Assembly (NCBI GenBank): GCA_043826565.1
Contig: JBDRPX010000012.1
Location: forward strand, 7,974-71,973
Origin: Candidatus Omnitrophota bacterium
GTDB taxonomy: Bacteria > Omnitrophota > Gorgyraeia > B26-G9
Direction of reading: 5' to 3'
Length of the DNA: 64,000 bases
Position 1 is the stretch's first letter; each line of letters starts with the position of its first letter. Below the pieces are notes generated by a model. It was not told the DNA's origin. It did not search any database and saw only the letters and a list, made by a program, of their open reading frames with translations. Position numbers and translations under genes: made by a program. This document shows, piece after piece, positions 395 through 21,408 of the stretch.

Positions 395-838
395 ATGGAT
401 AACCCGAAACTGCTTAAGATTTTACTTATCGAAGATAATCCTGATGATATCGCGATCACAAAAAGGGCTTTAAAGAACGCGAAGGTCATTAATCAGCTGT
501 TGGTGGTTAATGACGGACAGGAAGCGCTTGATTTTTTATATTGCCGGGGAGCTTATCAGGATAATTCCGAAGCTTCTGCTCCGGGGCTGATCCTTCTGGA
601 TATAAACCTGCCGAAAATAAACGGCTTGGAAGTGCTCCGGGAGATCAAAAATGATGAAATTTTAAGAAAAATTCCCGTGGTTATGCTGACAATGTCTAAA
701 CGTGATGAAGATGTGGTCCGGGGATATGTCAACGGATGCAATAGTTTTATTCAAAAGCCGGTTGAGTTTGAAAAATTTGTTGAAATTGTCCGTCAAATAG
801 GGTTATATTGGGGCTTGTTAAATGTTGAGTGTGAGTAA
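395..838 (+). CDS. Single-domain response regulator (CheY-like receiver)
   Basis: KILLIEDNPDD acidic pocket, phospho-Asp in LILLDINLP, conserved T/S and K (IQKP). RBS AAAGGAG upstream. Confidence 0.8.
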   Translation: MDNPKLLKILLIEDNPDDIAITKRALKNAKVINQLLVVNDGQEALDFLYCRGAYQDNSEASAPGLILLDINLPKINGLEVLREIKNDEILRKIPVVMLTMSKRDEDVVRGYVNGCNSFIQKPVEFEKFVEIVRQIGLYWGLLNVECE

Positions 839-856
839 AAATGAGAAGGACTTAAT

Positions 857-2356
857 ATGACGACCAGAATTTTACTTATCGAAGATAATCCTGATTATAT
901 CATGATTACTAAACGTATCCTGGCCAAGACCGGACAGGAATATTCGGTCGATGCGGTTATCGGGGCTCAGGAAGGGGTCAAAAAAATCATCGAAGGTAAA
1001 TATAATCTTATTCTCTGCGATTATCGTTTGCCGGGAATGAGCGGACTGGAGATCCTCCGGCAGATGCGCAGCCAGGGAAACGATACTCCGTTTGTTGTGG
1101 TGACCTCCGCCGGCAGTGAAAAAATCGCTGTTGATTTGATGCAGGAAGGGGCTGCGGATTATGTGGTAAAAGACTCCGCCTATGAAAATATCCTGCCGAT
1201 GGTTATTAAAAGAGCGATTGACAGATATGATGTAAAAAAAGAAAAACAATGGCTTGAACAAGAATTGATCAATTCCAATGAGAAATTAAAACAAATGTAC
1301 GCGATTAAAAGCGACTTTACCTCCATGGTGTCCCATGAATTAAGAACCCCGTTAACCGCGATCCGGGAGGGTATCAGTATTGTTCTGGACGGGTCTCTGG
1401 GAAATATTAATGAGGACCAGAAAGAGTTTTTGAATATTGCCCAGAAAAATGTCGATCGGCTAAAACGTTTGATCGATGATGTTCTGGATTTTTCAAAACT
1501 GGAATCTAAAAGAATGACATTTAAGGTCAGAGAAGATTCCCTTGAAGACGCGATAAAAGATGTTGTCAGCACGCAGCTTTCTGTCGCTAAGAAAAAAGGA
1601 TTATATCTGGACACTAAAATATCTTCGGATATTCCTTTAATCGAATTTGACCGGGATAGAATCAATCAGGTGCTGAATAATTTAGTCAGCAATGCTATTA
1701 AATTTACCGAAACCGGAGGGATTGTGATTTCCTGTGTTAATGATCCGGAACAGGGAGTTGTCCGGGTGAGCGTTGAAGATACCGGAACCGGAATTAGTCC
1801 GGAAGATATTCCTAAGCTTTTCCAGAAATTTCAACAGTTAGGCGGAATGGATAAGAGAAAAACCGGGGGGACCGGGTTAGGTCTGGCGATCTCCAAGCAG
1901 ATAATTGAGCATCATGGCGGGCAAATAACCGGCTGTTCGGAATTAGGTAAAAAATCGGAATTTTCGTTTACGCTTTTAATAAAACGGCAATACAAAGTTT
2001 TGGTTATAGACGATGAAATGGTTGTTCTTGATGTTTGTAAGAAATTTTTAGAAAAAGACAAATATATTGTTTTACGTACGACCCAAGGAAAAGAAGGGAT
2101 AAAACTTGCTCAAGAGGAAAAACCGGATGCCATTGTCCTGGATATGAGGCTGCAGGACATGAGCGGTTATGAGATAATCGGGAGATTAAAAAGCGGAAAA
2201 GAAACAGCTAATATCCCGATCCTGGTTATTTCCGGATATATGGATGAGATCGAGCGGATTAAAGCTCAGCCGGAAGATATTGCTTTGCCCTGGATCTTAA
2301 AACCGTTAGACGGGAAGCAGTTTTTATTAAAAATAAAATCACTAGTGCATGGATGA
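857..2356 (+). CDS. Hybrid sensor histidine kinase: N-terminal REC - HisKA - HATPase_c - C-terminal REC
   Basis: N-terminal receiver (LILCDYRLPGMSG). H-box SHELRTPLTAI. G-boxes DTGTGI and GGTGLGLAI. Second receiver (VLVIDDE ... IVLDMRLQDMSG ... ILKPL). Confidence 0.85.
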   Translation: MTTRILLIEDNPDYIMITKRILAKTGQEYSVDAVIGAQEGVKKIIEGKYNLILCDYRLPGMSGLEILRQMRSQGNDTPFVVVTSAGSEKIAVDLMQEGAADYVVKDSAYENILPMVIKRAIDRYDVKKEKQWLEQELINSNEKLKQMYAIKSDFTSMVSHELRTPLTAIREGISIVLDGSLGNINEDQKEFLNIAQKNVDRLKRLIDDVLDFSKLESKRMTFKVREDSLEDAIKDVVSTQLSVAKKKGLYLDTKISSDIPLIEFDRDRINQVLNNLVSNAIKFTETGGIVISCVNDPEQGVVRVSVEDTGTGISPEDIPKLFQKFQQLGGMDKRKTGGTGLGLAISKQIIEHHGGQITGCSELGKKSEFSFTLLIKRQYKVLVIDDEMVVLDVCKKFLEKDKYIVLRTTQGKEGIKLAQEEKPDAIVLDMRLQDMSGYEIIGRLKSGKETANIPILVISGYMDEIERIKAQPEDIALPWILKPLDGKQFLLKIKSLVHG

Positions 2357-2408
2357 TATATAAAACGTATTATCTGCGATTATCATCAGAAGAAGGAAAG
2401 GGGCAGCT

Positions 2409-4334
2409 ATGCCGACCAAGATATTGCTTATTGAGCACAATCCGGACCATATTTTATTAACTAAACGAATATTACAGAAATCAAATGATGATTACCAGAT
2501 AGACACTGCCGAAGAAGCTGACAGCGGAGAGAAAAGGTGTGTTGAAGAAGATTATGATTTAGTGCTTTCTGATTATCGTCTGCCCGGTTCAAGCGCGATG
2601 GATATATTACGCGGAGTTAGGGAGAAAGGTAAGGACACTCCTTTTGTCGTGGTTACTGCTGCCGGAAATGAGAAGATCGCGGTAGAATTGATGAAAGAAG
2701 GCGCCTCAGATTATGTGGTTAAGGACGCTGCGTATGAGGATATTCTGCCGATAGTTGTGGAGCAGTCGATAGAAAGGTATAGAATTAAAAAGGCCAAAGA
2801 TCGTGCTGAAGAAGCCTTGCGGGAAAGTGAACTCCGGTATAGACTGCTTGCGGAGAATGTAACGGATGTTATTTGGACCGCGGATTTAAATCTAAAATGG
2901 ACGTACCTTAGTCCGTCGATCATCCAGGTTTTTGGATATAGCGCGGAAGAGTCGGTAGGATTGACCCTTGAGGATATGCTTGTCCCGGCTTCGCGTATTC
3001 TGGCCAAGAAAACATTTCTCGCGGAACTTGCCGAAGCCCGGAAAAATACAGGGGATTTGAAACGTTCGGTAGTTTTAGAGCTGGAATTTCAGCGTAAAGA
3101 CGGCGCGACAACATGGGCGGAAGTTAAAACTACTTTTTTACGTGATGATAACAATGATCCGATTGGCCTTATCGGAGTTACCCGGGATATTACCCAGCGG
3201 AAAAAAGCGCAAGATGAGCTGGTAAATGCCTATCAGATGACCCGTGATATTCTGGAAAAATCACCTTTTGGGATTGCGGTTGTAAATGGAAACGGCATTG
3301 TCGAATATGTTAATCCGAAAATGATCGAGATCTCCGGAGATTTAAAAGAGCATTTTGAGAATTTAAATATGATCAATCTGGAAACATATAAAGACCGGGG
3401 GATCGATCAGAAAATTAAGGAAGCTTTGCAGGGGCAGGGGTTTTTTATGGGGGCGGTTGATTACACGTCACACTATGGTAAAAAACATACGATACGTAAT
3501 TTTACCGGAATACCTCTGAAGGATATGGAAGAAAGAAAAATGCTTATGTTTGTCGAAGATATAACCGAACTTAAAACCGCGGAGCAGAAATTAGCCGAAG
3601 CTTATAAAAAACTCAAAGAAACCCAAGAACAGCTTATTCAGTCCAGTAAAATGGTAGCGATGGGGCAACTGGCCGCAGGGATATCACATGAACTTAACCA
3701 GCCGTTAACCGGGGTTAAGGGGTTTGCTCAGGCGGCATTAATGGATTTAGATGCCGGCCATCCCGTCAGAAGTGATCTGCAAAGAATTGTTGAGCAGGCG
3801 GATAGGATGGATATGATTATTAAGAATGTGCGCTTTTTTGCCCGGAAGTCTGATTTTACGATGGAGGAACTGGATGTAAACAAGCCGATAGAAGATTCTC
3901 TGGGTTTGTTGAATGAACAGCTGCGGGTGCATAATATAAAAGTGAAAACCAGCTTAAAAGAAAATTTGCCTAAGATCCAGGGAGATTGTAATCAGCTGCA
4001 GCAGGTATTTTTGAACTTAATTACTAATGCCCGGGACGCGATTGATATTTTAAATAATCCGGAAGGAGGAGAACTTGAGATTGTCAGCGGAGTAATAAAC
4101 AATGGGAAAGAGATTGAGATTACTTTTGAAGATACCGGCGGAGGCATTCCGAATGAACATAAGGATCAGGTGTTTAATCCGTTTTATACTACGAAATCTC
4201 CGGACGGAGGCATGGGGCTGGGATTATCTATCGCCTATAGAATAATTGAAAACCATAAAGGGAAAATTGAAGTTGTCAGCAGTACCAGCAGCGGAACAAA
4301 ATTTCGGATCATTTTACCTGTGGAGAAACACTAG
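2409..4334 (+). CDS. REC - PAS/PAS - histidine kinase
   Basis: Receiver with variant acidic pocket (IEHNPDH) and phospho-Asp LVLSDYRLPGSS. Two PAS-like segments. H-box ISHELNQPLTGV. HATPase G-boxes DTGGGIP and GMGLGLSIA. Confidence 0.85.
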   Translation: MPTKILLIEHNPDHILLTKRILQKSNDDYQIDTAEEADSGEKRCVEEDYDLVLSDYRLPGSSAMDILRGVREKGKDTPFVVVTAAGNEKIAVELMKEGASDYVVKDAAYEDILPIVVEQSIERYRIKKAKDRAEEALRESELRYRLLAENVTDVIWTADLNLKWTYLSPSIIQVFGYSAEESVGLTLEDMLVPASRILAKKTFLAELAEARKNTGDLKRSVVLELEFQRKDGATTWAEVKTTFLRDDNNDPIGLIGVTRDITQRKKAQDELVNAYQMTRDILEKSPFGIAVVNGNGIVEYVNPKMIEISGDLKEHFENLNMINLETYKDRGIDQKIKEALQGQGFFMGAVDYTSHYGKKHTIRNFTGIPLKDMEERKMLMFVEDITELKTAEQKLAEAYKKLKETQEQLIQSSKMVAMGQLAAGISHELNQPLTGVKGFAQAALMDLDAGHPVRSDLQRIVEQADRMDMIIKNVRFFARKSDFTMEELDVNKPIEDSLGLLNEQLRVHNIKVKTSLKENLPKIQGDCNQLQQVFLNLITNARDAIDILNNPEGGELEIVSGVINNGKEIEITFEDTGGGIPNEHKDQVFNPFYTTKSPDGGMGLGLSIAYRIIENHKGKIEVVSSTSSGTKFRIILPVEKH

Positions 4335-4363
4335 GTTGATATTATGATCTAGAGAAAGACACA

Positions 4364-4819
4364 ATGGATGCGAATAGTCATAAACTAAAAAAACTTACCG
4401 TAGATGACGAGCGCGAAATAAAAAGCTTGTTTGAAATATCTCAAAGTCTGGCGATGCTGGCAGAACAAGGGGCGGTTGTTTCGCATGAAGTAGATGCCGT
4501 GCTTTCATCCGTAAGGCTTTTTTTAGAAACGCTCAAAGATAACAGCAGTTTTTTTCAGCAAGGACAGCCCGGCTTTGTTCTCGCCTGCCCGGAAAATGAT
4601 TCTGAAAACAAATTTCAGGAAATTGTTGACGATTTGCTTAGTAATGCTAAATTCCCTCCGGAGAAAGAGCCGTATAAATTAATTATCGCGAAAATGGACA
4701 AAGTGCTGATCAGAACTGTGCTGGGAAAGGTAAAAATGAATCAATCTCAAGCCGCGAAAATGTTGGGGATAAGCAGAAATACTTTGCGGTCTAAAATAAA
4801 AGAATATGGGTTAGCGTAA
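4364..4819 (+). CDS. Small protein with C-terminal Fis/NtrC-type HTH only (no REC or AAA+ domain)
   Basis: C-terminus LIRTVLGKVKMNQSQAAKMLGISRNTLRSKIKEYGL is a classic Fis-family HTH. The N-terminal ~100 aa is unassigned. Confidence 0.6.
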   Translation: MDANSHKLKKLTVDDEREIKSLFEISQSLAMLAEQGAVVSHEVDAVLSSVRLFLETLKDNSSFFQQGQPGFVLACPENDSENKFQEIVDDLLSNAKFPPEKEPYKLIIAKMDKVLIRTVLGKVKMNQSQAAKMLGISRNTLRSKIKEYGLA

Positions 4820-4856
4820 TCAGTAGTCTATTTTGCGAATTTACTGACTTTTTTTT
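4820..4856. terminator. Hairpin plus T8 tract between convergent genes (likely terminator of the + operon 395-4819)
   Basis: TCAGTA-N16-TACTGA stem followed by TTTTTTTT on the + strand. It overlaps the last codons of the minus-strand gene 4828-5190. Confidence 0.4.
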
Positions 4857-5190
4857 CAAAGTCCTGTCCTTCAAAAGGCATGCTTATCCATCCGTCAGCA
4901 TTTGTTTCTTCAGTAATTTTATCTAATTCGCTATCATCCTTTGCCGATACAAATAAAACCGAGATTTTTTCTGTAGCCGGATCATTTTTAAGCAGTTTAC
5001 AAATACTGCCGCCATCTATATCCGGAAGTGTATAATCCAGAAGAATTAACTGATACTCTCCGGTACGGGCTTTTCCCAGGCCTTCAGTTCCGGTTATGGC
5101 GGTTTCTGAGGCAAATCCCAGAACCTTTAATTTGAAAGTTAATATCTTGCTAATATAATGACTATCTTGTATTATGAGAATCTTACCCAT
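4828..5190 (-). CDS. Single-domain response regulator, atypical (conserved Lys replaced by Met)
   Basis: KILIIQDSHY, LILLDYTLPDIDG and VLFVSAKDD are present. The usual K-P motif reads SMPF. Confidence 0.7.
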   Translation of the reverse strand: MGKILIIQDSHYISKILTFKLKVLGFASETAITGTEGLGKARTGEYQLILLDYTLPDIDGGSICKLLKNDPATEKISVLFVSAKDDSELDKITEETNADGWISMPFEGQDFEKKVSKFAK

Positions 5191-5316
5191 ATATTTTCTC
5201 CTGGTATAATCTTCAATCCTCTGATGGATTATACCAGATTAAAACACAATTACAAAGATTTATTTTCTGTCAAACGTAGTCAATCACAGTAATCTGTTTT
5301 TCATCAATGTAATCAT

Positions 5317-5358
5317 GAGGCATTCTTATTTGTATTTAACTTTAAATAAGAATGCCTC
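5317..5358. promoter_or_regulatory. 42-bp palindrome GAGGCATTCTTATTT-N12-AAATAAGAATGCCTC in a divergent intergenic region
   Basis: Perfect 15-bp arms read directly. The core CATTCTTATTT / AAATAAGAATG recurs inside the 230-bp inverted repeats at 23739 and 35494. Confidence 0.5.
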
Positions 5359-5497
5359 AAAAAAACTATTCTTTATAATTTTTAATAAATTCAGACAGAT
5401 TTTAAAAGCATTGGAACCTCCCTAACTCTATTAAAATACATCATATACCAAGCCAAACACACAATAATCCACCATATCACATAATAAAGCACCAGCC

Positions 5498-5526
5498 TTG
5501 ACAAATCACATAATATGTGATACTAT
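5498..5526 (+). promoter_or_regulatory. Sigma70-like promoter TTGACA-17-TACTAT with dyad TCACATAATATGTGA in the spacer
   Basis: Read directly. The dyad between -35 and -10 is the operator position typical of MerR-type regulation. A MerR-like gene lies downstream. Confidence 0.4.
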
Positions 5527-5671: not shown

Positions 5672-5923
5672 TTGCCTAAAAAATCAATAAAAAATCAGAT
5701 GGGGATAATCGAGGCGGCGAAAAAAATTGGTATAGAGATGCACAGACTGTATTGCTGGGAGCAGTATGGTGTTGTGCATCCGGTTACGGAGCTCTGCGGT
5801 TCACGGCGTTTTCGCCGGTATTCTCAGGATGATATTGAAAGGGCCAAGTTTGTTAAATTTCTGGTAGAGGAAGAAGGATATATGTTAAAGGCCGCGGCGC
5901 GTAAGCTGAATGGAGGGAGGTAA
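5672..5923 (+). CDS. Small MerR/Xis-family HTH DNA-binding protein
   Basis: TTG start with RBS AAAGGAG. IIEAAKKIGIEMHRLYCWEQYGVVHPV...RRFRRYSQDDIERA resembles MerR/HTH_17. Confidence 0.55.
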   Translation: MPKKSIKNQMGIIEAAKKIGIEMHRLYCWEQYGVVHPVTELCGSRRFRRYSQDDIERAKFVKFLVEEEGYMLKAAARKLNGGR

Positions 5924-5926
5924 AAA

Positions 5927-6286
5927 ATGCGGAAAATACTGCTTATTGATGATGAGATAGATATACTGAAAACTGTGGGAGCGCGATTAAAGGTATGCGG
6001 ATATGAAGTTATTACCGCGGAAGACGGAGAAGAGGGGTTAAAAAAAATTATTGCGGAAAAGCCTGATTTAATTGTTTGCGATGTGATGATGCCGAAAATG
6101 GATGGGTACACCCTGGTGCGGAAAATGAAGTATGATAACTCGATACTGCCGATCCCGATCATTATGCTTACGGCAAAAGAGCGGCTGCAGGATTTATTTG
6201 AACTTGAGGGAGTTAGGGCGTATATAACAAAACCATTTAAGTCGGAAGAACTGTTAAAAAAGATCAAAGAACTTATCCAGAAGTAA
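5927..6286 (+). CDS. Single-domain response regulator
   Basis: ILLIDDEIDI, LIVCDVMMPKMDG, IMLTAKE, YITKPF. Confidence 0.8.
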   Translation: MRKILLIDDEIDILKTVGARLKVCGYEVITAEDGEEGLKKIIAEKPDLIVCDVMMPKMDGYTLVRKMKYDNSILPIPIIMLTAKERLQDLFELEGVRAYITKPFKSEELLKKIKELIQK

Positions 6287-6325
6287 ATTAACAGAATCGA
6301 AAAGCAAAAAAAGGGGAATAGATAG

Positions 6326-6685
6326 ATGAAAATATTAATTGCTGATGATGAAACTGGAGTAACTGACTTTCTGGGATATTTTCTTCAGCAGAAAGGGCAT
6401 GTTGTTGATGTGGCGGGTAATGGGAAGAAGGCTTTGGAATTACTCAAAAAAGATAAATATTCGATCATTTTTCTTGATTATAATATGCCTGAGGTAACGG
6501 GCCTGGAAGTAATTCAGTTTATCCGGGAAAACCACATGGATATTGTTGTTGTTATGATTACCGGGTATCCGTTTGTTAAGGAATTCTTGGCGAAATCGGT
6601 AGGGGCAGACGAATATATCCACAAACCATATGATTTGGGGCTGATCGAGAGTATTCTGGATAAGTATGCCGCAAGGGTTAACTAA
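6326..6685 (+). CDS. Single-domain response regulator
   Basis: KILIADDE, IIFLDYNMPEVTGLEVI, VVMITGYP, YIHKPY. Close paralog of the next gene. Confidence 0.8.
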   Translation: MKILIADDETGVTDFLGYFLQQKGHVVDVAGNGKKALELLKKDKYSIIFLDYNMPEVTGLEVIQFIRENHMDIVVVMITGYPFVKEFLAKSVGADEYIHKPYDLGLIESILDKYAARVN

Positions 6686-6700
6686 AATTAGGGGTAAAAA

Positions 6701-7054
6701 ATGAAGATTCTTATTGCTGATGATGAAAAAGAAATCACGCAAAATCTGCAGGAGTTTTTACGGCGCAAAGGATATGTGGCGGATGTCGCGTTTGACGGCC
6801 GGGAAGCTTTAGATTTAATTAAAGAAGTTGATTATGATCTCATATTTCTTGACTATAATATGCCGGAGTTAACCGGATTGGAATTGATAAAGTATGTTAA
6901 GGAACATAATGAAAAAACAAAAACAGTAATGCTTACCGGATACCCCTTAATGGAAGGTTTTTTTGCTAAAGCCGTAGGCGCGGATGAATATCTGGATAAG
7001 CCGTATCAGTTTAAGGACATCGAACAGATTATTGAGAAATATGAAAAGCCGTAA
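6701..7054 (+). CDS. Single-domain response regulator (paralog of 6326-6685)
   Basis: KILIADDE, LIFLDYNMPELTGLELI, VMLTGYP, YLDKPY. Confidence 0.8.
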   Translation: MKILIADDEKEITQNLQEFLRRKGYVADVAFDGREALDLIKEVDYDLIFLDYNMPELTGLELIKYVKEHNEKTKTVMLTGYPLMEGFFAKAVGADEYLDKPYQFKDIEQIIEKYEKP

Positions 7055-7059
7055 AAGTA

Positions 7060-7452
7060 TTGAGAAAGGAGAACGCTGTTATGGGAAAAAAAATATTATT
7101 AGTAGACGATGAACAGGACATTGTAACGGTTGTAACCGCGCGATTAAAAGCAAATGATTATGAAGTTATTGTCGCCTATGACGGAGAAGCAGCTTTAGAA
7201 ATGGCGAAAACACAAAATCCCGATTTAATTATCCTGGATCTTATGCTTCCGAAGATGGATGGTTATAAAGTGTGCGGGCTTTTAAAAAACGATGTGCGTT
7301 ATTCAAAAATCCCCATCATAATGTTTACCGCGCGGGCGCAGGAAGAGGATGTTTTGCTGGGGAAAGAAATGGGCGCGGATGATTATATTACAAAACCGTT
7401 TGATTCGATGGTGCTGCTGGAAAAGATTTCACTGCTTATATCTAAGGAGTAA
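7060..7452 (+). CDS. Single-domain response regulator (likely start at ATG 7081)
   Basis: GKKILLVDDEQDI, LIILDLMLPKMDG, IIMFTARAQ, YITKPF. Confidence 0.8.
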   Translation: MRKENAVMGKKILLVDDEQDIVTVVTARLKANDYEVIVAYDGEAALEMAKTQNPDLIILDLMLPKMDGYKVCGLLKNDVRYSKIPIIMFTARAQEEDVLLGKEMGADDYITKPFDSMVLLEKISLLISKE

Positions 7453-7498
7453 TCAGAGAGAAAAAATTGAAGCTTGATATTTGGACTGAGGTTAAAAA

Positions 7499-9115: not shown

Positions 9116-9152
9116 ATTAAGTTTTTGCAGAAAGAATAAAGGAGGAAGTAAG

Positions 9153-10367: not shown

Positions 10368-10465
10368 GGAAAGGGGGAATCAATTAGCAATTATCAATGA
10401 TCAGTTAGCAGTTAACATTTTAAAATTAAAATTTAACAATTAACACAAAAGGAAGGGAGGAAGTT

Positions 10466-10915: not shown

Positions 10916-11014
10916 CGATCAGTAAAAGATCGGCCAATGTCTCATAGCTGATGGTCGATGGACAAATTGAATAGTGTAGGGACAGGCCTGGGGCCTGTCC
11001 GGAGAGGGTTTGTT

Positions 11015-11383: not shown

Positions 11384-11565
11384 GTGGCGAAATCAAAAAT
11401 CAAAAGTCAAAATGCAAAATGACAAAGTAGAATTAAAAAAGAATTAAAGATTTAAAACAATAAAATTTTTAAAGATATGTTGAGCAAGTTTATAGAGTTA
11501 AATGTTTTTTGAATTTTGAATGACATTTTGATCTAAGAACAGGAACTTAAGGCGGAGATTTTTTT

Positions 11566-12072: not shown

Positions 12073-12162
12073 AAAGTCTCAGGTCGCAAGTCTCAAGTTA
12101 CAAGGAAAAGATAAAAACATTACACAAAAAAGGTTGTTAATACTAAAAAGAGGATCACAGTA

Positions 12163-13245: not shown

Positions 13246-13269
13246 TCAGGCAAAGAAAGAAGACGGGAT

Positions 13270-14871
13270 ATGTTAAAAAAACAATTAAACTCATTAATCG
13301 GACATTTGCCGAAGCGGATTCTTAAAGGGTGGGCGGATAAGCAGGCTTTAATCGGAATAGACATCGGCAAGACTTCAATTAAAGCGGTCCGGGTTAAAAA
13401 GTCCGGAGCAATTACGACATTGACCAAAACAGCGGTTGTGGACATAGATAGCCCCGGAGACAGGGGGGCTATTGTTCAGGCTCTAAAAAGTGTTATGGCA
13501 AAACTAAAGCCGGAGTCAGATAAAATTGTTTTTGTTCTGAACAGCCCGCAAGTCAGCGCCCGGAAAATTAATGCTCCGCATATGCCGAAAAAAGAATTAG
13601 CCGAGGCTGTCCGCTGGGCAATAAAAAATATTATACCGTTTAGCTTAGATGACGCGTATATGGATTTTTCGGTTGGCCCGGAAGTAAAAGATCCGGAGAC
13701 CCGGAAATTGAATATATCCGTGGGAGCGGTTCCCCAGGAAACAATTGAAGAGTTTTTGGATATTTTTAAACAAGCGGGAATCAGCCTAACGGCAATAATT
13801 CCGGCTTTTTCCGCCCTGCGGTATATCGCGAAACAGCGGGCTAATTCCGGAAAGGTTATCGCGGTTATTGAAATGGGCGCGGGAATAACGGATTTGATTA
13901 TTTACAAAAATTCATGCTTGGAATTTGCCAGAAAAATTCCCATGTCCGGACAAGATATAACCAACAGCTTGACCGGAGCTTTGATCACGGACCATGGCCG
14001 TATACAGCTAAGCGCTGGAGAAGCGGAAAAAGTTAAATGCTGTTATGGGATCCCCAAAGAAGGATATATCGAGGTCAATGACGGAAAAATTTCCAGCACA
14101 CAGGTTGTCGCTTTAATGCGAACAATAGTAGAGAAGCTGATTGATGAGATAGAACGGTCTTTTGATTATTACCGGGAAGAATCCCGCGGCGGGAGTGTCG
14201 ACAAGATTATTTTGCTGGGGGGAGGGTCGCGGCTTAAAGGATTAGCGGAAGTATTGAAAGAAGGCCTGAATATGGAAGTCAGCATGGGGGATGTTTTTGA
14301 CGGCATGGACGCGCCTTCGGATATTCACAATCTGGAAATGGCTCTCGGATCGGTATGGGATGAGGGAAAAACGATTAACCTCTTGCCGGAAATGATGAGG
14401 CATCGGCCGCAAAGTTTACTGGAGAAAGTTTCCATATCCGGCGGAACCACACTTATTATCGGGCTGCTGGTGTTGGGATTTATGGGGATGAAAATAAATG
14501 ATACTGCCTATGACAAACAATTGCAGGCGGCGCGCGTAGAGTATGGAGCAATTGCTCTCGGGCTGCGCAATCTTAAGGGTACGCTTTTGGCTAATCAGAT
14601 TTTTCAAGACAAGCCGTACTGGGAAGATGTGTTAAAGGAGCTGAGCAATGTTCTTCCGGCTAATATTCACCTTACCGGAGTAAGTCTAAAAGAAAAAAAA
14701 ATATACTTACAGGGGATGATTCAGCTTGAATATAAAAACGAAGCAACCTTGACTAAATTCATGCTTTTGCTGGAGGAGGGGATTTTTAAGAATGTAACTC
14801 TTGTGAAAACGCAAAAAATATCTCCGGAAGTACCGGAGGCAGAGTTTGAAATTAAAGCGGAAATTGATTAA
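13270..14871 (+). CDS. pilM: PilM-PilN fusion (actin-like ATPase fused to a bitopic PilN-like segment)
   Basis: N-terminal LIGIDIGKTSIKAV (PilM/FtsA-like). Internal INLLPEMMRHRP followed by a TM helix, which is the PilN hallmark. Confidence 0.75.
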   Translation: MLKKQLNSLIGHLPKRILKGWADKQALIGIDIGKTSIKAVRVKKSGAITTLTKTAVVDIDSPGDRGAIVQALKSVMAKLKPESDKIVFVLNSPQVSARKINAPHMPKKELAEAVRWAIKNIIPFSLDDAYMDFSVGPEVKDPETRKLNISVGAVPQETIEEFLDIFKQAGISLTAIIPAFSALRYIAKQRANSGKVIAVIEMGAGITDLIIYKNSCLEFARKIPMSGQDITNSLTGALITDHGRIQLSAGEAEKVKCCYGIPKEGYIEVNDGKISSTQVVALMRTIVEKLIDEIERSFDYYREESRGGSVDKIILLGGGSRLKGLAEVLKEGLNMEVSMGDVFDGMDAPSDIHNLEMALGSVWDEGKTINLLPEMMRHRPQSLLEKVSISGGTTLIIGLLVLGFMGMKINDTAYDKQLQAARVEYGAIALGLRNLKGTLLANQIFQDKPYWEDVLKELSNVLPANIHLTGVSLKEKKIYLQGMIQLEYKNEATLTKFMLLLEEGIFKNVTLVKTQKISPEVPEAEFEIKAEID

Positions 14872-14910
14872 ACGGATGATCTTTAATGCTTAGGGAATAA
14901 TATGGGGTGA

Positions 14911-15444
14911 ATGATGAAAAAAATTTTAGCGAATAAAAAGATGCTTAATGGTGTCGCCGCCGGAGGCGTATTATTGGCACTTTGTTTATTACTTTATTTT
15001 GTGCATTTTCCTCTTTGGCGGGAAGTTAAGGAAAAGAAAGCGGAACTGGCCGGGTTAAATAGTAAATTGAATGACGCGCGCACAATACTGGATTCTTTTA
15101 AAAAAACAGCGAATACAAAAAAACTCCTGCCGCGAAAAAAAATATCCTATGCTATCGATGAACTTACCAGGATTGGCACTAGTTATAATATTAGTTTTAT
15201 TTCCATGAGCCCGGAAGGGGTAGTTAACGCAGAAGGGACAGAGTATTCGGTTATGCCGATTGCCTTGAGCATGGTGGGATCATACGAAGATATTGGAAAG
15301 TTTATCGGCGCATTGGAGCAATCAGATCAGATTATCGCGGCGGTAAGCCATTTTGATTTAGCCGAGAACAAAATAAATTCCGGAAAAATAAACGCGAATA
15401 TGGTGATCAACTTATATCTGCAAAAACTGCAGGAAGATGTTTAA
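14911..15444 (+). CDS. pilO: PilO-like bitopic pilus assembly protein
   Basis: N-terminal TM (VAAGGVLLALCLLLYFV), then a coiled-coil and a PilO-like C-terminal domain. Position after pilM/N. Confidence 0.55.
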   Translation: MMKKILANKKMLNGVAAGGVLLALCLLLYFVHFPLWREVKEKKAELAGLNSKLNDARTILDSFKKTANTKKLLPRKKISYAIDELTRIGTSYNISFISMSPEGVVNAEGTEYSVMPIALSMVGSYEDIGKFIGALEQSDQIIAAVSHFDLAENKINSGKINANMVINLYLQKLQEDV

Positions 15445-15452
15445 ACTGAAAG

Positions 15453-16007
15453 GTGTTTATGATTATTAAAAATAAACTAAGCATTTTGGTGGTTGATGAC
15501 AGCGCGACTATTCGTGAAACAATTGTCGGGCAGTTGCTTGCTCTGGGGTATGTTGCGCAAGGAGTTCCTTCCGCGGAAGAAGCAGAAAAGTTATTGTCTG
15601 AGGCAGATTTTGATATATTGTTTTTGGATATTAAGCTTAGCGGAATAGACGGGATGACATATCTGGAAACGATCAGGCAGTCTAAGGCTAATATTGCGGT
15701 TATTATAATGACGGCTTTTGAGTCCCCCAAAACAGCAGTCGAAGCAATTGAAAAAGGAGCCTGTGATTATTTGATTAAGCCGATTCAGGGAAAGCATTTA
15801 GAACTGATAATTCTTCGGGCATTAAGGCGCCGGCAGTTAGAGCGGGAGCGTAAAGACGCGATTGAGAAACGAATTAACGCATTGCTTTCATACACAAAAG
15901 ATACCCGAGATATGAAACTGGCAATTAATGCTCTTAAGCTGGAAGTGAATAATCTACTCATAGAGCTTGGGCAGCAGCCAAAGTACACGGTAATAGAAGA
16001 AGTTTAA
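15453..16007 (+). CDS. Response regulator receiver with C-terminal coiled-coil extension, embedded in the pilus operon
   Basis: ILVVDDSATI, ILFLDIKLSGIDG, VIIMTAFESP, YLIKPI. About 70 aa of helical tail. Confidence 0.75.
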   Translation: MFMIIKNKLSILVVDDSATIRETIVGQLLALGYVAQGVPSAEEAEKLLSEADFDILFLDIKLSGIDGMTYLETIRQSKANIAVIIMTAFESPKTAVEAIEKGACDYLIKPIQGKHLELIILRALRRRQLERERKDAIEKRINALLSYTKDTRDMKLAINALKLEVNNLLIELGQQPKYTVIEEV

Positions 16008-16040
16008 TAAGACATCCTATAAAGATCAGGTATAATTTGA

Positions 16041-16547
16041 ATGATATTATACCTAAAAATTATACCGGAGGTGACCATGGATAAAGAAAAAAAATTAAAA
16101 ATCGCAATTCCGATCCTTATACTCATTATGATCGGGGTATATTCACCGGTATTAAAAAATTCACGGGTTCGCCCTGATTCTTTGGTTCAGGAAAATCCTA
16201 ATGTTGCGGAAACTTTTGCCGGTGAAGAAGAATTTACCAATTTTTCTGATTTAGCGGGTATTCAGCGTCAGCATTCGCGAAGTAAATATCAGCAATGGAA
16301 GAGAGACCCTTTTGCGGAATATTCTGATGTTTCTCAGAGCGGCATCCCCCGGCTTCACGGGATAGTTTGGGATAGCCAGAAGCCCAAAGCCATAATCAAT
16401 GAAACTATCGCGGGAATCGGAGATACAGTCGCCGGAGTAATGATCATCGATATACAGAAATCTAAAGTATTAGTAAATAATGGAGAAAAGAACATAGAAT
16501 TAAAGGTTTATAAGCCGAAACAAGACAGTAAAGTGGAAAATAACTAA
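16041..16547 (+). CDS. PilP-like protein (TM anchor plus C-terminal beta domain)
   Basis: N-terminal TM (KIAIPILILIMIGVY). The C-terminal GIVWDSQKPKAIINETIAGIGDTVAGVMIIDIQKSKVLVNNGEKNIELKV resembles the PilP/GspC HR domain. Confidence 0.4.
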   Translation: MILYLKIIPEVTMDKEKKLKIAIPILILIMIGVYSPVLKNSRVRPDSLVQENPNVAETFAGEEEFTNFSDLAGIQRQHSRSKYQQWKRDPFAEYSDVSQSGIPRLHGIVWDSQKPKAIINETIAGIGDTVAGVMIIDIQKSKVLVNNGEKNIELKVYKPKQDSKVENN

Positions 16548-16573
16548 TAATACATGCTATAATTGCCCAAATG

Positions 16574-16602
16574 TTTGACATATTGCATAAAATAGTATAT
16601 AA
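16574..16602 (+). promoter_or_regulatory. Sigma70-like promoter TTGACA-17-TATAAT upstream of the REC-GAF-HK gene
   Basis: Read directly. The inverted repeat AGTATGC-N17-GCATACT lies just downstream (16613-16643). Confidence 0.4.
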
Positions 16603-16654
16603 TAGTATATAGAGAGTATGCAATAAATATAAAAACGCATACTATTGAATAATA

Positions 16655-18346
16655 GTGGATAAGATGGTGATAAGAATGGAAAAAGCAAGAATTCTGGTTA
16701 TTGATGATGAATCGGTTATTCGCCAATTACTGCTGCGTACTTTGCGTGATAAGGGGTATGATGTCGAGATCGCCGAAGACGGTAATCGGGCCATGGAGAA
16801 AATTAACGGCAGTATTTTTAACCTGCTCATTACTGATTTAAGAATGCCTAAGATTGGCGGTATGGAAGTGTTGGAGAAGATAAAGAAAACAAATCCTTAT
16901 GTGGAAGTTATGATCATAACCGGCTACCCGACGATAGAAGCCGCGGTCGCGGCAATTAAGATCGGCGCGTATGATTTTATTTGCAAACCGTTTGATTTAA
17001 AAGAAATCCAGCATAAAGTAGAGCTTTGTTTAGAGCGCCAAAAACAAAACATGAATAGGATCCAGGTAAGTGAGCTGGCCGCATTATTCGAATTGACGAA
17101 AGCAAGTATTTGTGTAAATTCAGAAGCGCACTTAGAGGAGCGGATCTTAACAACAGCATTAGAAATTACTTCTGCCGAACACGGGGCTTTATATTTATTT
17201 GATAAAGCCGGGAAGAATTTAAATATAGTTATAAATCAAAGTATCGGCGGAGAGGTAAGCTGGCATAATAAAATGAAGCTTAATGAAAAAGTTCTGGCGC
17301 AATGGGCTAAAAAAGGCGAGTCAATGTTAATTACCAATACAGATAAGGATGAGCAATGTAAAGATATTTTTCTTGCCGAAGAAAAACCGAAGTCTTTAAT
17401 TGTCGCGCCGTTAGTCAGCAATCCTTTGCGTTTTGAAGAAAGTATTTTGGGAGTACTTGTTCTCACGCAAACACGATCCAATGAAAATTTTACCAAAAGA
17501 AGCCAGTTATTAACTTCAATCCTGTCCGGGCAGGCGGCAACAATGATCAAAAATCTGGAATTATACCGGGAACTGGAAAAAAAGATCGACGCGCTTAAAA
17601 CTTCACTGCAGGAGCTTCACCAAACACAGGATCAGCTTATTCAGACGGAAAAGTTGTCCTCTGTGGGGCAATTGGCTTTTGGGATCGCGCATGAAATAAG
17701 AAATCCGCTGGGGATTGTCCAGGGCGGCGTGGATTATTTAGGCAGTCTTTTAAATGAAAAAGATAAAGAAATAACCGGGGCCGCGGAGAAAATAAAAAAA
17801 GCTATTGTCCGGGCAAATAATATAATTGTTGATCTGTTAAAATTTTCGCGCAGCTCCAAAATTACCTTGGAGCAGGTTGATATTCCCCGGGTAATCGAGG
17901 AATCCTTGTCATTGCTGAAAAATAAGGCATATTTAGGTAATGTTAAAGTAAAAACAAATTTTCCGGAGGATCTGGGACTTGTTGACGGAGATGCTTCGCT
18001 GCTGCGGCAGGTTTTTTTTAATATCTGTAATAACGCGGTTGACGCGATGCCTCAAGGAGGAGATTTGGTTATTAATGTTATTAATAAAAATGACGTTTCT
18101 TCCCAGGAACCGTCTATTCATATAGAAATAAAAGACACCGGAGAAGGTATCCCGGAAGGTGTTCAGTCAAAAATATTTGTTCCTTTTTTTACGACAAAAG
18201 ATCCCGGAAAAGGTACCGGGCTTGGTTTAAGTATCGTGCATATGATAATTGAACGCCACGGAGGCACGATCCGCGTAGAAAGTGACGGCCAAAAAGGAAC
18301 AACTTTCATTATTGAATTACCGCAATTTAGTATTTCAAAAACATAA
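16655..18346 (+). CDS. REC - GAF - histidine kinase
   Basis: ILVIDDESVI and LLITDLRMPKIGG (REC). GAF-like middle region. H-box AHEIRNPLGIV. G-boxes DTGEGIP and GTGLGLSIV. Confidence 0.85.
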   Translation: MDKMVIRMEKARILVIDDESVIRQLLLRTLRDKGYDVEIAEDGNRAMEKINGSIFNLLITDLRMPKIGGMEVLEKIKKTNPYVEVMIITGYPTIEAAVAAIKIGAYDFICKPFDLKEIQHKVELCLERQKQNMNRIQVSELAALFELTKASICVNSEAHLEERILTTALEITSAEHGALYLFDKAGKNLNIVINQSIGGEVSWHNKMKLNEKVLAQWAKKGESMLITNTDKDEQCKDIFLAEEKPKSLIVAPLVSNPLRFEESILGVLVLTQTRSNENFTKRSQLLTSILSGQAATMIKNLELYRELEKKIDALKTSLQELHQTQDQLIQTEKLSSVGQLAFGIAHEIRNPLGIVQGGVDYLGSLLNEKDKEITGAAEKIKKAIVRANNIIVDLLKFSRSSKITLEQVDIPRVIEESLSLLKNKAYLGNVKVKTNFPEDLGLVDGDASLLRQVFFNICNNAVDAMPQGGDLVINVINKNDVSSQEPSIHIEIKDTGEGIPEGVQSKIFVPFFTTKDPGKGTGLGLSIVHMIIERHGGTIRVESDGQKGTTFIIELPQFSISKT

Positions 18347-18355
18347 GGAGACATT

Positions 18356-18745
18356 ATGAGTATAAAAAATATTCTTTTAATTGACGACGAGGAAGATTTC
18401 TGTTTTTTTGTAAAACGTAATCTGGAAAGATCCGGAGGATTCGCGGTGCAATATACTACTGATCCGGAACAAGGGATAAAGCTGGCCAAAGACCATGCCC
18501 CGGACGTGATATTGCTGGATATTACGATGCCGAAAAAAGATGGATTGCAGGTATTGGCGGCCTTGAAAAAAGATAAAAAGACAATGGAGATACCCATAAT
18601 CATGCTGACTGCCGTAGAGGATGAATCGGCCAAATTAAGCGCCGCGCGGTATTACAGCGAAGAATATATTATAAAACCGATAACTTTTGAAATGCTTCAA
18701 GAGAGGATAGATGATGTTTTAAAACGTTACGGAAAGGATAAGTAA
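18356..18745 (+). CDS. Single-domain response regulator
   Basis: ILLIDDEEDF, VILLDITMPKKDG, IIMLTAVED, YIIKPI. Confidence 0.8.
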   Translation: MSIKNILLIDDEEDFCFFVKRNLERSGGFAVQYTTDPEQGIKLAKDHAPDVILLDITMPKKDGLQVLAALKKDKKTMEIPIIMLTAVEDESAKLSAARYYSEEYIIKPITFEMLQERIDDVLKRYGKDK

Positions 18746-18790
18746 TTTAACCTAACTTAAAGAGCAAATAAAGGAAAGAGGAGGTGTTCA

Positions 18791-19168
18791 ATGTCTTTAC
18801 AAAAAAAAGTATTGGTGATTGATGATGAGGAAGACTTTTCTTTTTTTGTAAAAAAGAATCTTGAGGTATCCGGGATGTTTAATGTTTTGGTAGCTACCAA
18901 CGGTGAGGATGGAATAAGGCTTGCCCGGATTGAACATCCGGATATTATTTTACTGGATGTAATGATGCCTTCGCTGGGAGGGCCGGATGTGGCGGATATT
19001 TTAGGTAATGACCCTAAGACCAAAGATATCCCGGTGGTTTTTTTAACAGCCATAGTCACAAAGGAAGAGATCGGCGTGGAAACAATGCGGGAAATCGGCG
19101 GCCAGAATTATATCGCCAAGCCTATATCCGCGGAAGACCTGATTGCGGCGATAAATAAAGTGGTATAA
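18791..19168 (+). CDS. Single-domain response regulator (paralog of 18356-18745)
   Basis: VLVIDDEEDF, IILLDVMMPSLGG, VVFLTAIVT, YIAKPI. Confidence 0.8.
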   Translation: MSLQKKVLVIDDEEDFSFFVKKNLEVSGMFNVLVATNGEDGIRLARIEHPDIILLDVMMPSLGGPDVADILGNDPKTKDIPVVFLTAIVTKEEIGVETMREIGGQNYIAKPISAEDLIAAINKVV

Positions 19169-19180
19169 AAAAAGGAAGAT

Positions 19181-20689
19181 ATGAGCGTACAAATGAAACG
19201 CAAAATTATATCTGTTCTGGGATTAATAACGGTGATCCCATGCCTGGTTGCTTATTATTTATCGGTAAGCATGCCCGAACAGACACCTTTTTTTATAAAA
19301 ATGATCGTAATTAGTATTACCGTGGTTATCGGTACCTTGGGAGGGGTTTATCTTTTAAGGTTTATGGAAATGGTCGCTAAGTTGTACGAAAAACTTATGA
19401 ATATCGCCAATGGCGATCTTGCGCAGGAGGTAAAACCCGCGCCGGAAAGCGGGACGGAAAATCTTGCCGATTCGATTAATAAAGTTACTCAGAAATTAAG
19501 AGAAAACGCGAATGAATTGGAAAAAAGGTCGATTCTTATTGAACGCTCCGCGCAGGAGATGAAAAGAAGGGATGAAATACGCTCAACATATCTGTCTACT
19601 GTAGCGCATGAATTAAGAGCGCCGTTGATAAATATAGATAAGAGCACATCATTTTTACTGGGTGAAGAAAATATTGCCCGGGAAGAAAAAGACAATCTTG
19701 TAAAAATTATCAGTACTAATGCCAAAAGGCTGATCCATATGGTTAATGATCTGCTGGATATATCCAGAATGGAATCCGGAGAAATGGTCCTGCGGTATGA
19801 TCTGGTTGATCTGCGGGATATTATTGAGGAAGCTTCCGGGTCTGTAGAACGATGGCGGAAAAGCAAAGAATTACAGCTGGTGCTTAAGATCGCTCCGGAT
19901 TTGCCTAAAGTATATGTGGATAGAGTCCGGATTGTTCAGGTGGTGATCAATCTTCTGAGTAACGCGATTAAGTTTACTCCGCCGCATGGGAAAATTATCG
20001 TAGAGTGTAAAACAACAGAAGGTTTGAAAAATAAAGATGAGCTTTTTGTTTTGGTGGAGGTGGATGATAACGGAACGGGTTTTTCCGAGGCAATACAGGA
20101 ATTATTGTTTGTAAGATATAAATTGCAGCAGGAGCTTGGTTCTTATCGGACCGTTCCGAATACGGGGCTGGGCCTGCCGATTGCCAAACAAATAATAGAA
20201 TTGCATGGCGGAAATATCTGGGCCCAAAGCAAAACCAACAGCGGCAGTAGATTTTCTTTTACGCTTCCGGTAAAAGCTCAGGTGCTTGGAGATAGTGAGA
20301 TTTTTACTCCGGGGATAGCGCAGAAGAAAATACTGGTGATCGATGATGAAAAAGAATTACGCGATCTCCTGACCCGGGAGTTTAACAAAAAAGGATATCT
20401 TGTCGATACCGCTTTCGATGGATTTGACGGATTTAAACGAGCGGTAAAGAATGAGTATGATGTTGTCATCAGTGATATCAGAATGCCGAATATGGATGGG
20501 ATTGAGTGTTTAAAAATATTAAAAAAAATGACTCCGCATACCCAGATAATCCTGATGACTGGATTCTCTATGGGGAAAAAGGTGCAGGAAATAATCGATC
20601 AGAATGCTTATGTTTGTGTGCAAAAGCCATTTGACCTGCCTGAATTATTAGCAATTGTGGAAAAGGCAAGCAGAAGGGGTAACAAGTGA
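19181..20689 (+). CDS. Membrane histidine kinase (2 TM - HAMP - HisKA - HATPase) with C-terminal REC
   Basis: Two TM helices. H-box AHELRAPLINI. G-boxes DDNGTGF and NTGLGLPIA. Receiver ILVIDDEKEL, VVISDIRMPNMDG, CVQKPF. Confidence 0.85.
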   Translation: MSVQMKRKIISVLGLITVIPCLVAYYLSVSMPEQTPFFIKMIVISITVVIGTLGGVYLLRFMEMVAKLYEKLMNIANGDLAQEVKPAPESGTENLADSINKVTQKLRENANELEKRSILIERSAQEMKRRDEIRSTYLSTVAHELRAPLINIDKSTSFLLGEENIAREEKDNLVKIISTNAKRLIHMVNDLLDISRMESGEMVLRYDLVDLRDIIEEASGSVERWRKSKELQLVLKIAPDLPKVYVDRVRIVQVVINLLSNAIKFTPPHGKIIVECKTTEGLKNKDELFVLVEVDDNGTGFSEAIQELLFVRYKLQQELGSYRTVPNTGLGLPIAKQIIELHGGNIWAQSKTNSGSRFSFTLPVKAQVLGDSEIFTPGIAQKKILVIDDEKELRDLLTREFNKKGYLVDTAFDGFDGFKRAVKNEYDVVISDIRMPNMDGIECLKILKKMTPHTQIILMTGFSMGKKVQEIIDQNAYVCVQKPFDLPELLAIVEKASRRGNK

Positions 20690-21063
20690 TGGCCAAATTG
20701 CTTATCGTAGATGATGATTTAGTGGTCAGAGATTTGTTTGAGCGGACCTTGTCCAAGGAAGGCTATGAAGTATTTACCGCTGAGACAGGAGAACAATGTC
20801 TTGAGGTTATCTCCAATGAAGGAGCGGATAATTTTGCTTTTGTGTTCCTGGATTTAAAAATGCCGGGGATTGGAGGGGAAAATACTTTTGAGATTTTAAG
20901 GCGCTGCTATAAAAAACTAAACATTATTGTAATTAGTGCTTACGGGATGTTTTGTACGCGGGCTAAATTAATTGAAAAAGGGAACGTGATATATTTGACC
21001 AAGCCGTTTGATATGGAGTATATAAAAATTTTGGTGCGGAACCGTATTAAAGAAAAAATATAA
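20686..21063 (+). CDS. Single-domain response regulator
   Basis: LLIVDDDLVV, FVFLDLKMPGIGG, IIVISAYG, YLTKPF. Its start overlaps the stop of the upstream kinase. Confidence 0.8.
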   Translation: MMAKLLIVDDDLVVRDLFERTLSKEGYEVFTAETGEQCLEVISNEGADNFAFVFLDLKMPGIGGENTFEILRRCYKKLNIIVISAYGMFCTRAKLIEKGNVIYLTKPFDMEYIKILVRNRIKEKI

Positions 21064-21084
21064 CATGCTTACAATTAAAAATGG

Positions 21085-21408
21085 ATGTTCAGTTTAATGT
21101 TAAACGTATTAGATATGGAGGTTGTTATGAGTGAAAAAATTTTATCCATATCAGAAGCGGCAAAGTATTTGGGAGTATTTCCGCTGACTTTGAGAAATTG
21201 GGAGAAAAAAGGATTGTTAAGATCTTTTCGTACGCCCGGAGGACACCGGCGCTATAAAAAGAGCGAGCTTGACCGGATCATGGGTGTAGACCGGGAAGAA
21301 GATAAGATTAAAGAGACGATCCGGAAACTCGAAGAAATCCAGTTCCATAACGGCCGTCAGGAAAAGATTAACAAGGTTATTGAAAGCTTGAAAAAGCTGG
21401 CCGAATAA
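21085..21408 (+). CDS. Small MerR/Xis-family HTH protein (likely start at ATG 21127)
   Basis: SISEAAKYLGVFPLTLRNWEKKGLLRSFRTPGGHRRYKKSELDRI is similar to the 5672 protein. Confidence 0.55.
   Translation: MFSLMLNVLDMEVVMSEKILSISEAAKYLGVFPLTLRNWEKKGLLRSFRTPGGHRRYKKSELDRIMGVDREEDKIKETIRKLEEIQFHNGRQEKINKVIESLKKLAE

Follow-up and report, generated by a model that had tools for sequence, protein, structure and literature searches.

A receiver-rich, CheA-free signalling locus in and around a type IV pilus operon of Candidatus Omnitrophota

Known pilus-linked receivers and the Omnitrophota locus

Stand-alone CheY-like receivers control the type IV pilus in the Pil-Chp system of Pseudomonas (PilG/PilH, ChpA, PilJ, PilI) and the Tax1/Pix system of cyanobacteria (PixG/PixH, PixL, PixJ), where they come as pairs with antagonistic or sink roles and are served by a CheA-type kinase together with a methyl-accepting chemotaxis protein (MCP) and CheW. 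Phosphorylated PixG binds PilB1, PixH antagonises, and PixL is modulated by its own receiver (REC) domain (PMC11181946). In Xanthomonas, the output-less receiver EmvR, fed by the HisKA-type kinase ColS, binds PilB and alters ATPase activity (PMC11973254), and DrdR, an output-less tandem REC-REC protein, also binds PilB (PMC13507683); for these orphan receivers, binding of both PilB and PilT and changed ATPase activity have been described (PMC11973254, PMC13507683). Here we analysed a 64-kb stretch of a Candidatus Omnitrophota metagenome-assembled genome (MAG), referred to as the window, in which positions 395-21408 hold a signalling and pilus locus with receivers and HisKA-type kinases in and around a type IV pilus operon. 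The locus is real, conserved and unusually expanded, and it is made of ordinary parts; the mechanism set out below is a proposal. Stand-alone receivers at type IV pili are known, and what is new is an operon-embedded, clade-syntenic, CheA-free and highly expanded set of them. Full-text literature searches on Omnitrophota yielded no account of this architecture or of type IV pilus control in these bacteria.

To compare the locus with described systems, essentially all open reading frames (ORFs) of at least 100 aa in the window, and a 260-aa ORF at the upstream edge of the Logan contig L001, were scanned against Pfam. As in Pil-Chp and Tax1/Pix, stand-alone CheY-like receivers occur with a pilus. 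Unlike in those systems, the kinases are HisKA-type with PAS, GAF, REC or transmembrane (TM) inputs, PATAN domains are missing from the window, and the number of receivers is far higher. No CheA-type kinase (Hpt, H-kinase_dim and CheW domains) and no MCP (MCPsignal) or CheW matched in the scanned ORFs, in agreement with the initial annotation, which had reported neither CheA nor MCP and had seen no obvious match to Pil-Chp or Frz. The 2.8 kb upstream of the window likewise held no CheA, CheW or MCP, and the adjacent chemosensory cluster that would make this a standard Che system was not found there, the gene beyond the TonB-dependent receptor encoding a HisKA kinase. EmvR and DrdR are the closest functional precedents for the window receivers; their genes lie away from pil genes, whereas the window receivers lie in and around the pil operon, and the family of the pilB-proximal receiver t4 is syntenic with pilB across the clade.

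Two further systems resemble the locus in part. As in PilS-PilR, a kinase lies near the pilus genes, and the gene after that of the second kinase, HK2, encodes a protein whose C-terminus is a helix-turn-helix (HTH) of NtrC type. Unlike PilR (REC-AAA+(sigma-54)-HTH_8), this protein, encoded at 4364, has only HTH_8, without REC or AAA+; no Sigma54_activat (AAA+) domain was detected in the window (Pfam), and the sigma-54 promoter TGGCACG-N4-TTGCW had zero matches there at up to 2 mismatches, so that a PilR-like sigma-54 route was rejected. The Frz (FrzZ) and Red four-component systems of Myxococcus are branched receiver and kinase pathways with phosphate-sink logic in motility or development. Frz needs FrzE (CheA-type) and FrzCD (MCP), and the window has neither, nor a stand-alone REC-REC protein like FrzZ; Red has no pilus linkage, and the likeness of both to the window is one of architecture. 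By defining components, the locus therefore lies outside Pil-Chp, Tax, Frz and PilS-PilR, and the Hpt protein of a classical phosphorelay, or a Spo0B/ChpT-like phosphotransferase in its place, was found neither in the window nor in the 2.8 kb upstream (Pfam).

Receivers, kinases and pilus genes

All genes of the locus except one lie on the + strand and are separated by short gaps, consistent with co-transcription; coordinates below refer to this strand unless marked. Module A (395-5190) comprises the receiver REC1, the histidine kinases HK1 and HK2, a 151-aa Fis-type HTH protein and a minus-strand receiver. Module B (5672-16547) begins with an 83-aa MerR-type protein and continues with receivers t1-t4, pilB, pilC, three pilin genes, a gene for a 360-aa protein, a pilM-pilN fusion, pilO, a 184-aa tailed receiver and a pilP-like gene. 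Module C (16655-21408) carries HK3, receivers p1 and p2, HK4, receiver q and a 107-aa MerR/BldC-type protein. A perfect sigma-70 consensus, TTGACA-17-TATAAT, lies in the gap before HK3 (16575-16603; consensus match only) and suggests that this downstream module is a separate transcription unit.

The locus contains exactly 15 REC domains, all within 395-21063 and together spanning 5,547 nt (26% of the region), as determined with Pfam and with a custom REC hidden Markov model (HMM) that was built from the window's and related REC domains and run on every stop-to-stop segment in six frames of the 64 kb. The same model found zero REC domains in the other ~43 kb of the window. A sixteenth domain, counted in the initial annotation, did not appear even at E ≤ 10, and the N-terminus of the 4364 protein is not REC-like. 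Ten of the REC proteins, rather than the nine first counted, are stand-alone receivers (starting at 395, 4828(-), 5927, 6326, 6701, 7060, 15453, 18356, 18791 and 20686). In alignments, the acceptor Asp and the Thr/Ser are kept in all 15 domains and the Lys in 14, and the full CheY-like set of acidic pair, acceptor Asp, Thr/Ser and Lys is present in 13. The exceptions are the N-terminal REC of HK2, with EH in place of the DD acidic pair, and the minus-strand receiver (4828-5190; Pfam 1.8e-14), which has a QD pair and Met in place of Lys and is possibly a pseudo-receiver. Throughout the 64 kb, no REC protein with a DNA-binding output was detected (Pfam), as had been claimed; the receivers are true stand-alone genes and not truncated OmpR/NarL regulators, because the gaps of 5-46 nt 3' of the REC genes leave no room for frameshifted or degraded output domains. 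Equivalog-level NCBIfam names for the receivers and kinases were discarded, none reaching its curated cutoff.

The four receivers t1 (5927-6286), t2 (6326-6685), t3 (6701-7054) and t4 (7060-7452; Pfam 1.4e-29) lie in tandem immediately 5' of pilB (5927-7452), where the initial annotation had placed them. t1 and t4 are paralogues with 50-52% identity, and t2 and t3 form a tandem paralogue pair (54%). The second such pair, also correctly recognised at the outset, is p1 (18356-18745) and p2 (18791-19168), which share 46% identity and are distantly related to the t4 family (34-40%). REC1 (395-838; Pfam Response_reg 6.7e-21) has an insertion between alpha2 and beta3. Receiver q (20686-21063), a REC domain by Pfam and of NtrC class, with AtoC/NtrC receivers as its best NCBIfam matches, overlaps the HK4 stop by 4 nt with its start, which suggests translational coupling of the two genes. 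Between pilO and the pilP-like gene, as first described, lies the tailed receiver (REC-tail; 15453-16007), a 184-aa protein of NtrC-class type. Its AlphaFold model (pLDDT 85) shows an ordinary receiver fold with alpha5 extended into one unbroken 59-residue helix (residues 113-171), and a fold search returned generic receivers only, with the NtrC1 receiver and its coiled-coil linker among the best.

All four kinases are HisKA-type, with intact H-box and N/G1/G2 boxes on reading of the sequences. Their number agrees with the initial annotation, which had counted three as REC-fused; by Pfam, all four are. HK1 (857-2356) is a REC-HisKA-HATPase-REC hybrid (Pfam: two REC stretches, HisKA and HATPase_c), the sole window protein with two REC domains, and REC is its only sensor-type domain. 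HK2 (2409-4334) has the architecture REC-PAS-PAS-HisKA-HATPase and HK3 (16655-18346) REC-GAF-HisKA-HATPase (both Pfam). HK1-HK3 are cytoplasmic, with inputs that are REC-only in HK1, PAS in HK2 and GAF in HK3, and the N-terminal REC domains of HK1 and HK2 share 59% identity. HK4 (19181-20689; Pfam and sequence reading) is a TM-HisKA-HATPase-REC protein and the only membrane-anchored kinase of the four; it has two TM helices, an outer loop of ~7 residues and a HAMP-like linker. So short a periplasmic loop in a membrane kinase is as expected for intramembrane sensing of the PilS type. HK1 and HK4, with C-terminal REC domains, are hybrid kinases, a feature of phosphorelays.

The pilus genes make up an apparently complete type IVa core, with PilB, PilC, three N-methyl pilins and PilM/N/O (Pfam). 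pilB (7499-9115) encodes an MshEN and T2SSE ATPase (T2SSE 1.2e-139) and pilC (9153-10367) a T2SSF platform protein (2e-66); three pilin or pseudopilin genes (N_methyl/T2SSG) start at 10466, 10958 and 11566. The 360-aa membrane-anchored protein (12163-13245) is of unassigned family. It is followed by the pilM-pilN fusion (13270-14871; PilM_2 9.9e-32, PilN 1e-6), whose pilM part scores 142.7 bits against the 133-bit cutoff of TIGR01175, and by pilO (14911-15444; PilO 6e-11). The pilP-like gene (16041-16547) had no Pfam match and is the orthologue of the post-pilO gene of related loci (BLASTP to L004:16259-16795, E 4e-18). No c-di-GMP enzymes (GGDEF, EAL) and no PilZ were detected in the window (Pfam), though PilB keeps MshEN.

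The rest of the window consists of housekeeping and other genes, among them a TonB receptor gene, rubrerythrin, mutS, mutL, def, nadA and mnmA. Two paralogous genes for TonB-dependent receptors, whose products share 36% identity over 198 aa, bracket the locus at 31-366 (with L001:781-2811) and 21576-23735, the former being the C-terminus of a receptor that extends upstream of position 1. Beyond it, ~2.1-2.8 kb upstream of the window (L001:2-784), lies a fifth HisKA/HATPase kinase, of which the contig end leaves the C-terminal half only; the signalling neighbourhood thus reaches past the window edge. A second pilin-like cluster at 59696-64000 contains two N_methyl proteins (62144-62575 and 62576-63106), preceded by three ORFs without a Pfam match (59696-62043). 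It also encodes, at 63146-63742, a protein paralogous to the 360-aa one of the pilus operon (24% identical, E 5e-8).

The pilus operon in related genomes

PilC has its closest relatives (52-55% identity) mainly in Candidatus Omnitrophota MAGs, and proteins identical to those of the window carry the Omnitrophota label at NCBI. With 41% identity to the nearest PilMN, the lineage is isolated. We counted REC domains in the related loci from Pfam tables and by reading translations, and assigned orthology from an alignment of 32 REC domains. The loci have in common the backbone pilB-pilC-pilins-x360-pilMN-pilO-pilP, and the 360-aa protein occupies the same place in L002, L004, L005 and L011-L014. 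Four loci have one receiver ahead of pilB: it follows a secretin gene and precedes pilB in L002 and L004, the latter also with an HK-x-REC hybrid upstream, and it precedes pilB in L017 and in L005, where a kinase, a receiver, a PilZ-like gene and an HD-GYP gene lie 3' of pilP. The two richest loci, L012 and L015, each have 6 REC domains with HisKA kinases around the same operon. L012 reads dCache-HK, REC, HK-GGDEF, REC, REC, pilB, and after pilP REC, REC-HK, REC; L015 reads REC, REC, HK-GGDEF-REC, REC, REC, pilB, and after pilP one REC. L016 has the same pilus operon with no receiver. In L011, L013 and L014 no signalling gene follows pilP; L011 and L013 end before pilB, and the upstream part of L014 has no pilB, pilC or REC.

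The pilB-proximal receiver t4 is conserved, with an orthologue directly 5' of pilB in six loci (L002, L004, L005, L012, L015 and L017; 56-66% identity) and, weaker cases included, in eight or more. The pre-pilB receivers of this family share an invariant PKMxGxKVCGLLK segment. When a t4-family alignment was searched against metagenomes, 80 loci matched, most of them generic OmpR/PleD-type receivers (43-55% identity); a PilB Walker-A motif follows just 3' of the REC domain in L017, L019 and L044, where L019 (57%) and L044 (50%) are weaker t4-like cases, and L017 and L019 are the two best metagenome matches on contigs long enough to tell. In L002 and L004, a secretin with a TPR-like tail lies directly 5' of the REC-pilB pair (L002:380-2056, L004:6283-7980). 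At that place the window has t1-t3 ahead of t4, and the REC-rich L012 and L015 likewise have no secretin there.

Other parts of the signalling set also recur. L012 and L015 hold orthologues of four window receiver families and of HK1, whose kinase core is 42% identical to the pilus-linked HK-GGDEF-REC of L015. REC1 and the first REC of L015 share 51% identity; t1 has its orthologue in L015, as second pre-pilB receiver (54%), and a similar protein at that place in L012 (44%); and the closest relative of t2/t3 is the post-pilP receiver of L015 (38-40%). HK1 and the kinases of L015, L004 and L005 share the segment EGI..VLDG..G.[IV]N..QK, and the N-terminal REC domains of HK1 and HK2 share with stand-alone receivers of L012 and L015 an unusual VVK[D/T] motif, in which the Lys is not followed by Pro. 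HK1 itself lacks GGDEF; the HK1-family kinases of L012 and L015 carry it. REC-tail stands apart: 5.8 billion proteins yielded only 3 full-length orthologues of it, and a REC insertion at the pilO-pilP junction is specific to the window among the loci compared.

Together, these comparisons indicate that the link between receivers, kinases and the pilus is conserved across deep divergence. As read from the L012 and L015 orthologues and from the t4 orthologues 5' of pilB, the window is the most expanded form of a recurrent, Omnitrophota-specific architecture, and paralogue relationships point to an expansion by duplication (t1/t4, t2/t3, p1/p2 and the N-terminal REC domains of HK1 and HK2) and by recruitment (REC-tail). 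The initial annotation had called the locus exceptional, which is right for the number of receivers but not for the architecture, as relatives carry 1-6 REC domains around the same operon. Its tie of the receivers to pilus function is borne out to the extent that receiver and kinase families recur in synteny with this operon in other Omnitrophota.

Two side observations concern the related loci. Small genes of the selfish-element type occur in or beside several, namely a 23S rRNA IVP protein between pilB and pilC (L015:5676-6065) and GIY-YIG domains beside a pilin gene (L004:12223-12972) and beside a REC-tail orthologue (L009:4787-5074). L005 (CAYGRZ010000002.1) is labelled 'uncultured Planctomycetia' yet has an Omnitrophota-type pilus operon with a 53% identical PilC; the label may be a taxonomic mis-assignment.

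Proposed network and alternative explanations

Taking as observed base the gene content, the domain architecture, the intact catalytic and acceptor residues and the synteny with the pilus operon, we consider it on balance probable that the locus encodes a CheA-independent, HisKA-driven network of stand-alone receivers that controls the type IV pilus machine post-translationally and is specific to Omnitrophota. Its conserved core would be an HK1-family kinase and t4, and the HK1 family would phosphorylate the t4 and t1 families. The binding target of phosphorylated t4 would most likely be the PilB ATPase or else the PilC/PilM platform, with an effect on pilus extension, as proposed from the precedents EmvR, DrdR and PixG together with synteny. 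In the window, this core would have been expanded by t1 as a second conserved receiver and by the duplicated third family t2/t3 upstream of pilB, by a dimerising long-alpha5 receiver within the pilMN-pilO-pilP block, and by two flanking modules, whose kinases, cytoplasmic with PAS or GAF domains and in one case membrane-anchored, would each be gated by a REC domain of their own. Several kinases would then converge on a pool of competing receivers, of which some would be effectors at the machine and the others competitors, phosphate sinks or connectors between kinases; a phosphate-sink role of the extra receivers is plausible. The N-terminal REC domains of HK1-HK3 could let one kinase gate another. 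By a weak inference from family resemblance, REC-tail and q, both of NtrC class, may be the preferred partners of the NtrB/AtoS-like HK2 and HK3, and the PhoB/PleD-like t1, t4, p1 and p2 those of the PhoR/TorS-like HK1 and HK4. In a bolder form of this proposal, which we regard as doubtful, the receivers would be built-in pilus subunits, with t4-type receivers on PilB and a dimeric REC-tail in PilM/N/O/P forming a CheA-independent 'switch complex' that integrates at least four or five HisKA kinases by way of competing receivers.

Several points weigh against control of the pilus by this network. Contact of receivers with PilB, PilC or PilM, and the pairing of kinases with receivers, are drawn from synteny and precedent. 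L016 has the pilus operon with zero receivers, so a receiver is not obligatory for the machine. Genes for secretin, PilT and prepilin peptidase are all absent from the 64-kb window, as judged from tblastn with the L002 and L004 secretins, the lack of a second T2SSE paralogue and the lack of Peptidase_A24 and Secretin Pfam matches; the genes for PilQ, PilT and PilD may lie elsewhere in the genome. The closest REC-tail orthologue, whose gene context could be read, belongs to a kinase operon without pilus genes, and some members of the locus, such as REC-tail, may be recent recruits with unrelated partners. Finally, output could possibly be transcriptional, through the three HTH proteins that are interleaved with the receivers.

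Of the alternatives, such a transcriptional output, which we judge rather unlikely, fares best. Here the receivers would partner the MerR-type proteins and the Fis-type protein in a phosphorylation-dependent way, and these split response regulators would turn the pil operon and its neighbours on or off. All three HTH candidates named in the initial annotation are present by Pfam: the orphan Fis-type protein (4364-4819, 151 aa; HTH_8 2.4e-11, residues ~100-150) and two small MerR-type proteins, of 83 aa (5672-5923; MerR_1 2.5e-11) and of 107 aa (21085-21408; MerR 2.6e-12, HTH_17 7.7e-10). The last is of a MerR/BldC/excisionase type and matches the BldC family at 5.8e-13, below the family cutoff. 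Their positions fit the idea. The 83-aa protein heads the pilus unit in the same frame as t1, separated from it by the stop codon and 3 nt (5921-5929), and the 107-aa protein follows q in frame, after the stop codon and 21 nt (21061-21087). The Fis-type gene directly follows HK2, as pilR follows pilS, and its product matches the NtrC C-terminus. Moreover, a promoter-like site, TTGACA-17-TACTAT with TG (5498-5526; consensus match only), lies ahead of the MerR-REC4-pil operon, and its spacer contains the perfect 15-bp palindrome TCACATAATATGTGA (5506-5520).

However, the MerR gene is not conserved: it is missing from the receiver-pilB arrangement of L012, L015, L002 and L017, and L004 has an unrelated 81-aa ORF in the corresponding position, so that we dropped the 83-aa protein as a candidate conserved operon head. 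Same-frame adjacency is expected by chance in one of three cases for each pair, and these MerR/REC neighbours may be due to chance or may be remnants or precursors of HTH-REC fusions. The palindrome occurs once and lies in an AT-rich region, and the N-terminus of the 4364 protein is an orphan: its first ~85 residues (4364-4620) had no homologue in a phmmer search of 1.84 billion representatives, in which the HTH part only was matched. Two further DNA features were noted. A third half-site, TCACATAATA, lies 29 nt upstream, giving an operator-like arrangement (5475-5526) ahead of the MerR-type gene, and the divergent intergenic region has a perfect 16-nt inverted repeat, TGAGGCATTCTTATTT / AAATAAGAATGCCTCA, with a 12-nt loop and then an A run (5316-5359), which is not a terminator in either orientation.

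The initial annotation had also suggested a multi-step phosphorelay, and a classical His-Asp-His-Asp scheme would run from the C-terminal REC domains of HK1 and HK4 through an Hpt encoded elsewhere to terminal receivers. The two kinases with such domains are in its favour, and the Hpt search covered the window and its 2.8-kb upstream extension rather than the whole genome. Within that range no Hpt or other phosphotransferase was detectable, and the only helical candidate, the N-terminus of the 4364 protein, has no homologues and a weak H-box resemblance, which makes this scheme unlikely. C-terminal REC domains can also modulate intramolecularly, as in PixL (PMC11181946). We had considered the 4364 protein as a DHp-like phosphotransferase-HTH fusion, given its SHEVDAVL motif and a match to the PhoR DHp region of only E 2e-4, but rejected this since the N-terminal 85 residues lack homologues and the single-sequence model is of low confidence.

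A coincidental cluster, in which a two-component signalling island serves other targets, such as the TonB-dependent receptors on either side, has in our view only a slim chance. In some phyla, neighbourhoods rich in REC genes are common, two TonB-dependent receptor genes bracket the locus, and modules A and C appear to have promoters of their own. Yet four receiver families and the HK1 family recur with the operon in genomes whose PilMN is ~40% identical, the loci of relatives are not flanked by TonB receptors, and in the window receivers form part of the pil operon, upstream of pilB and at the pilO-pilP junction, spaced by 5-46 nt. That collapsed or chimeric REC reads produced the locus has hardly any chance and misassembly is very unlikely, although the MAG origin of the sequence and the protein-level repetitiveness of REC genes could favour it. 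Two Logan contigs, L001 and L010, assembled independently from the same sample and run, agree fully in gene order and encode identical proteins, the REC paralogues are too divergent to mis-assemble (18-59% protein identity in a pairwise matrix) and the GC content is even.

For many Omnitrophota a host-associated or predatory lifestyle has been proposed, in which type IV pili are regarded as central, and to our knowledge nothing is known of pilus control in these uncultured bacteria. The comparison of loci defines a conserved, testable core of HK1-family kinase, pilB-proximal receiver and PilB. With 0 to 15 receivers around one operon, the loci form a natural series for branched two-component evolution by duplication and recruitment, and, being free of CheA, they complement Pil-Chp and Tax in studies of how receivers communicate with the pilus motor. 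If the receivers did form a switch complex, this would be a signalling logic undescribed for any pilus, through which ultra-small cells might possibly control contact with host or prey.

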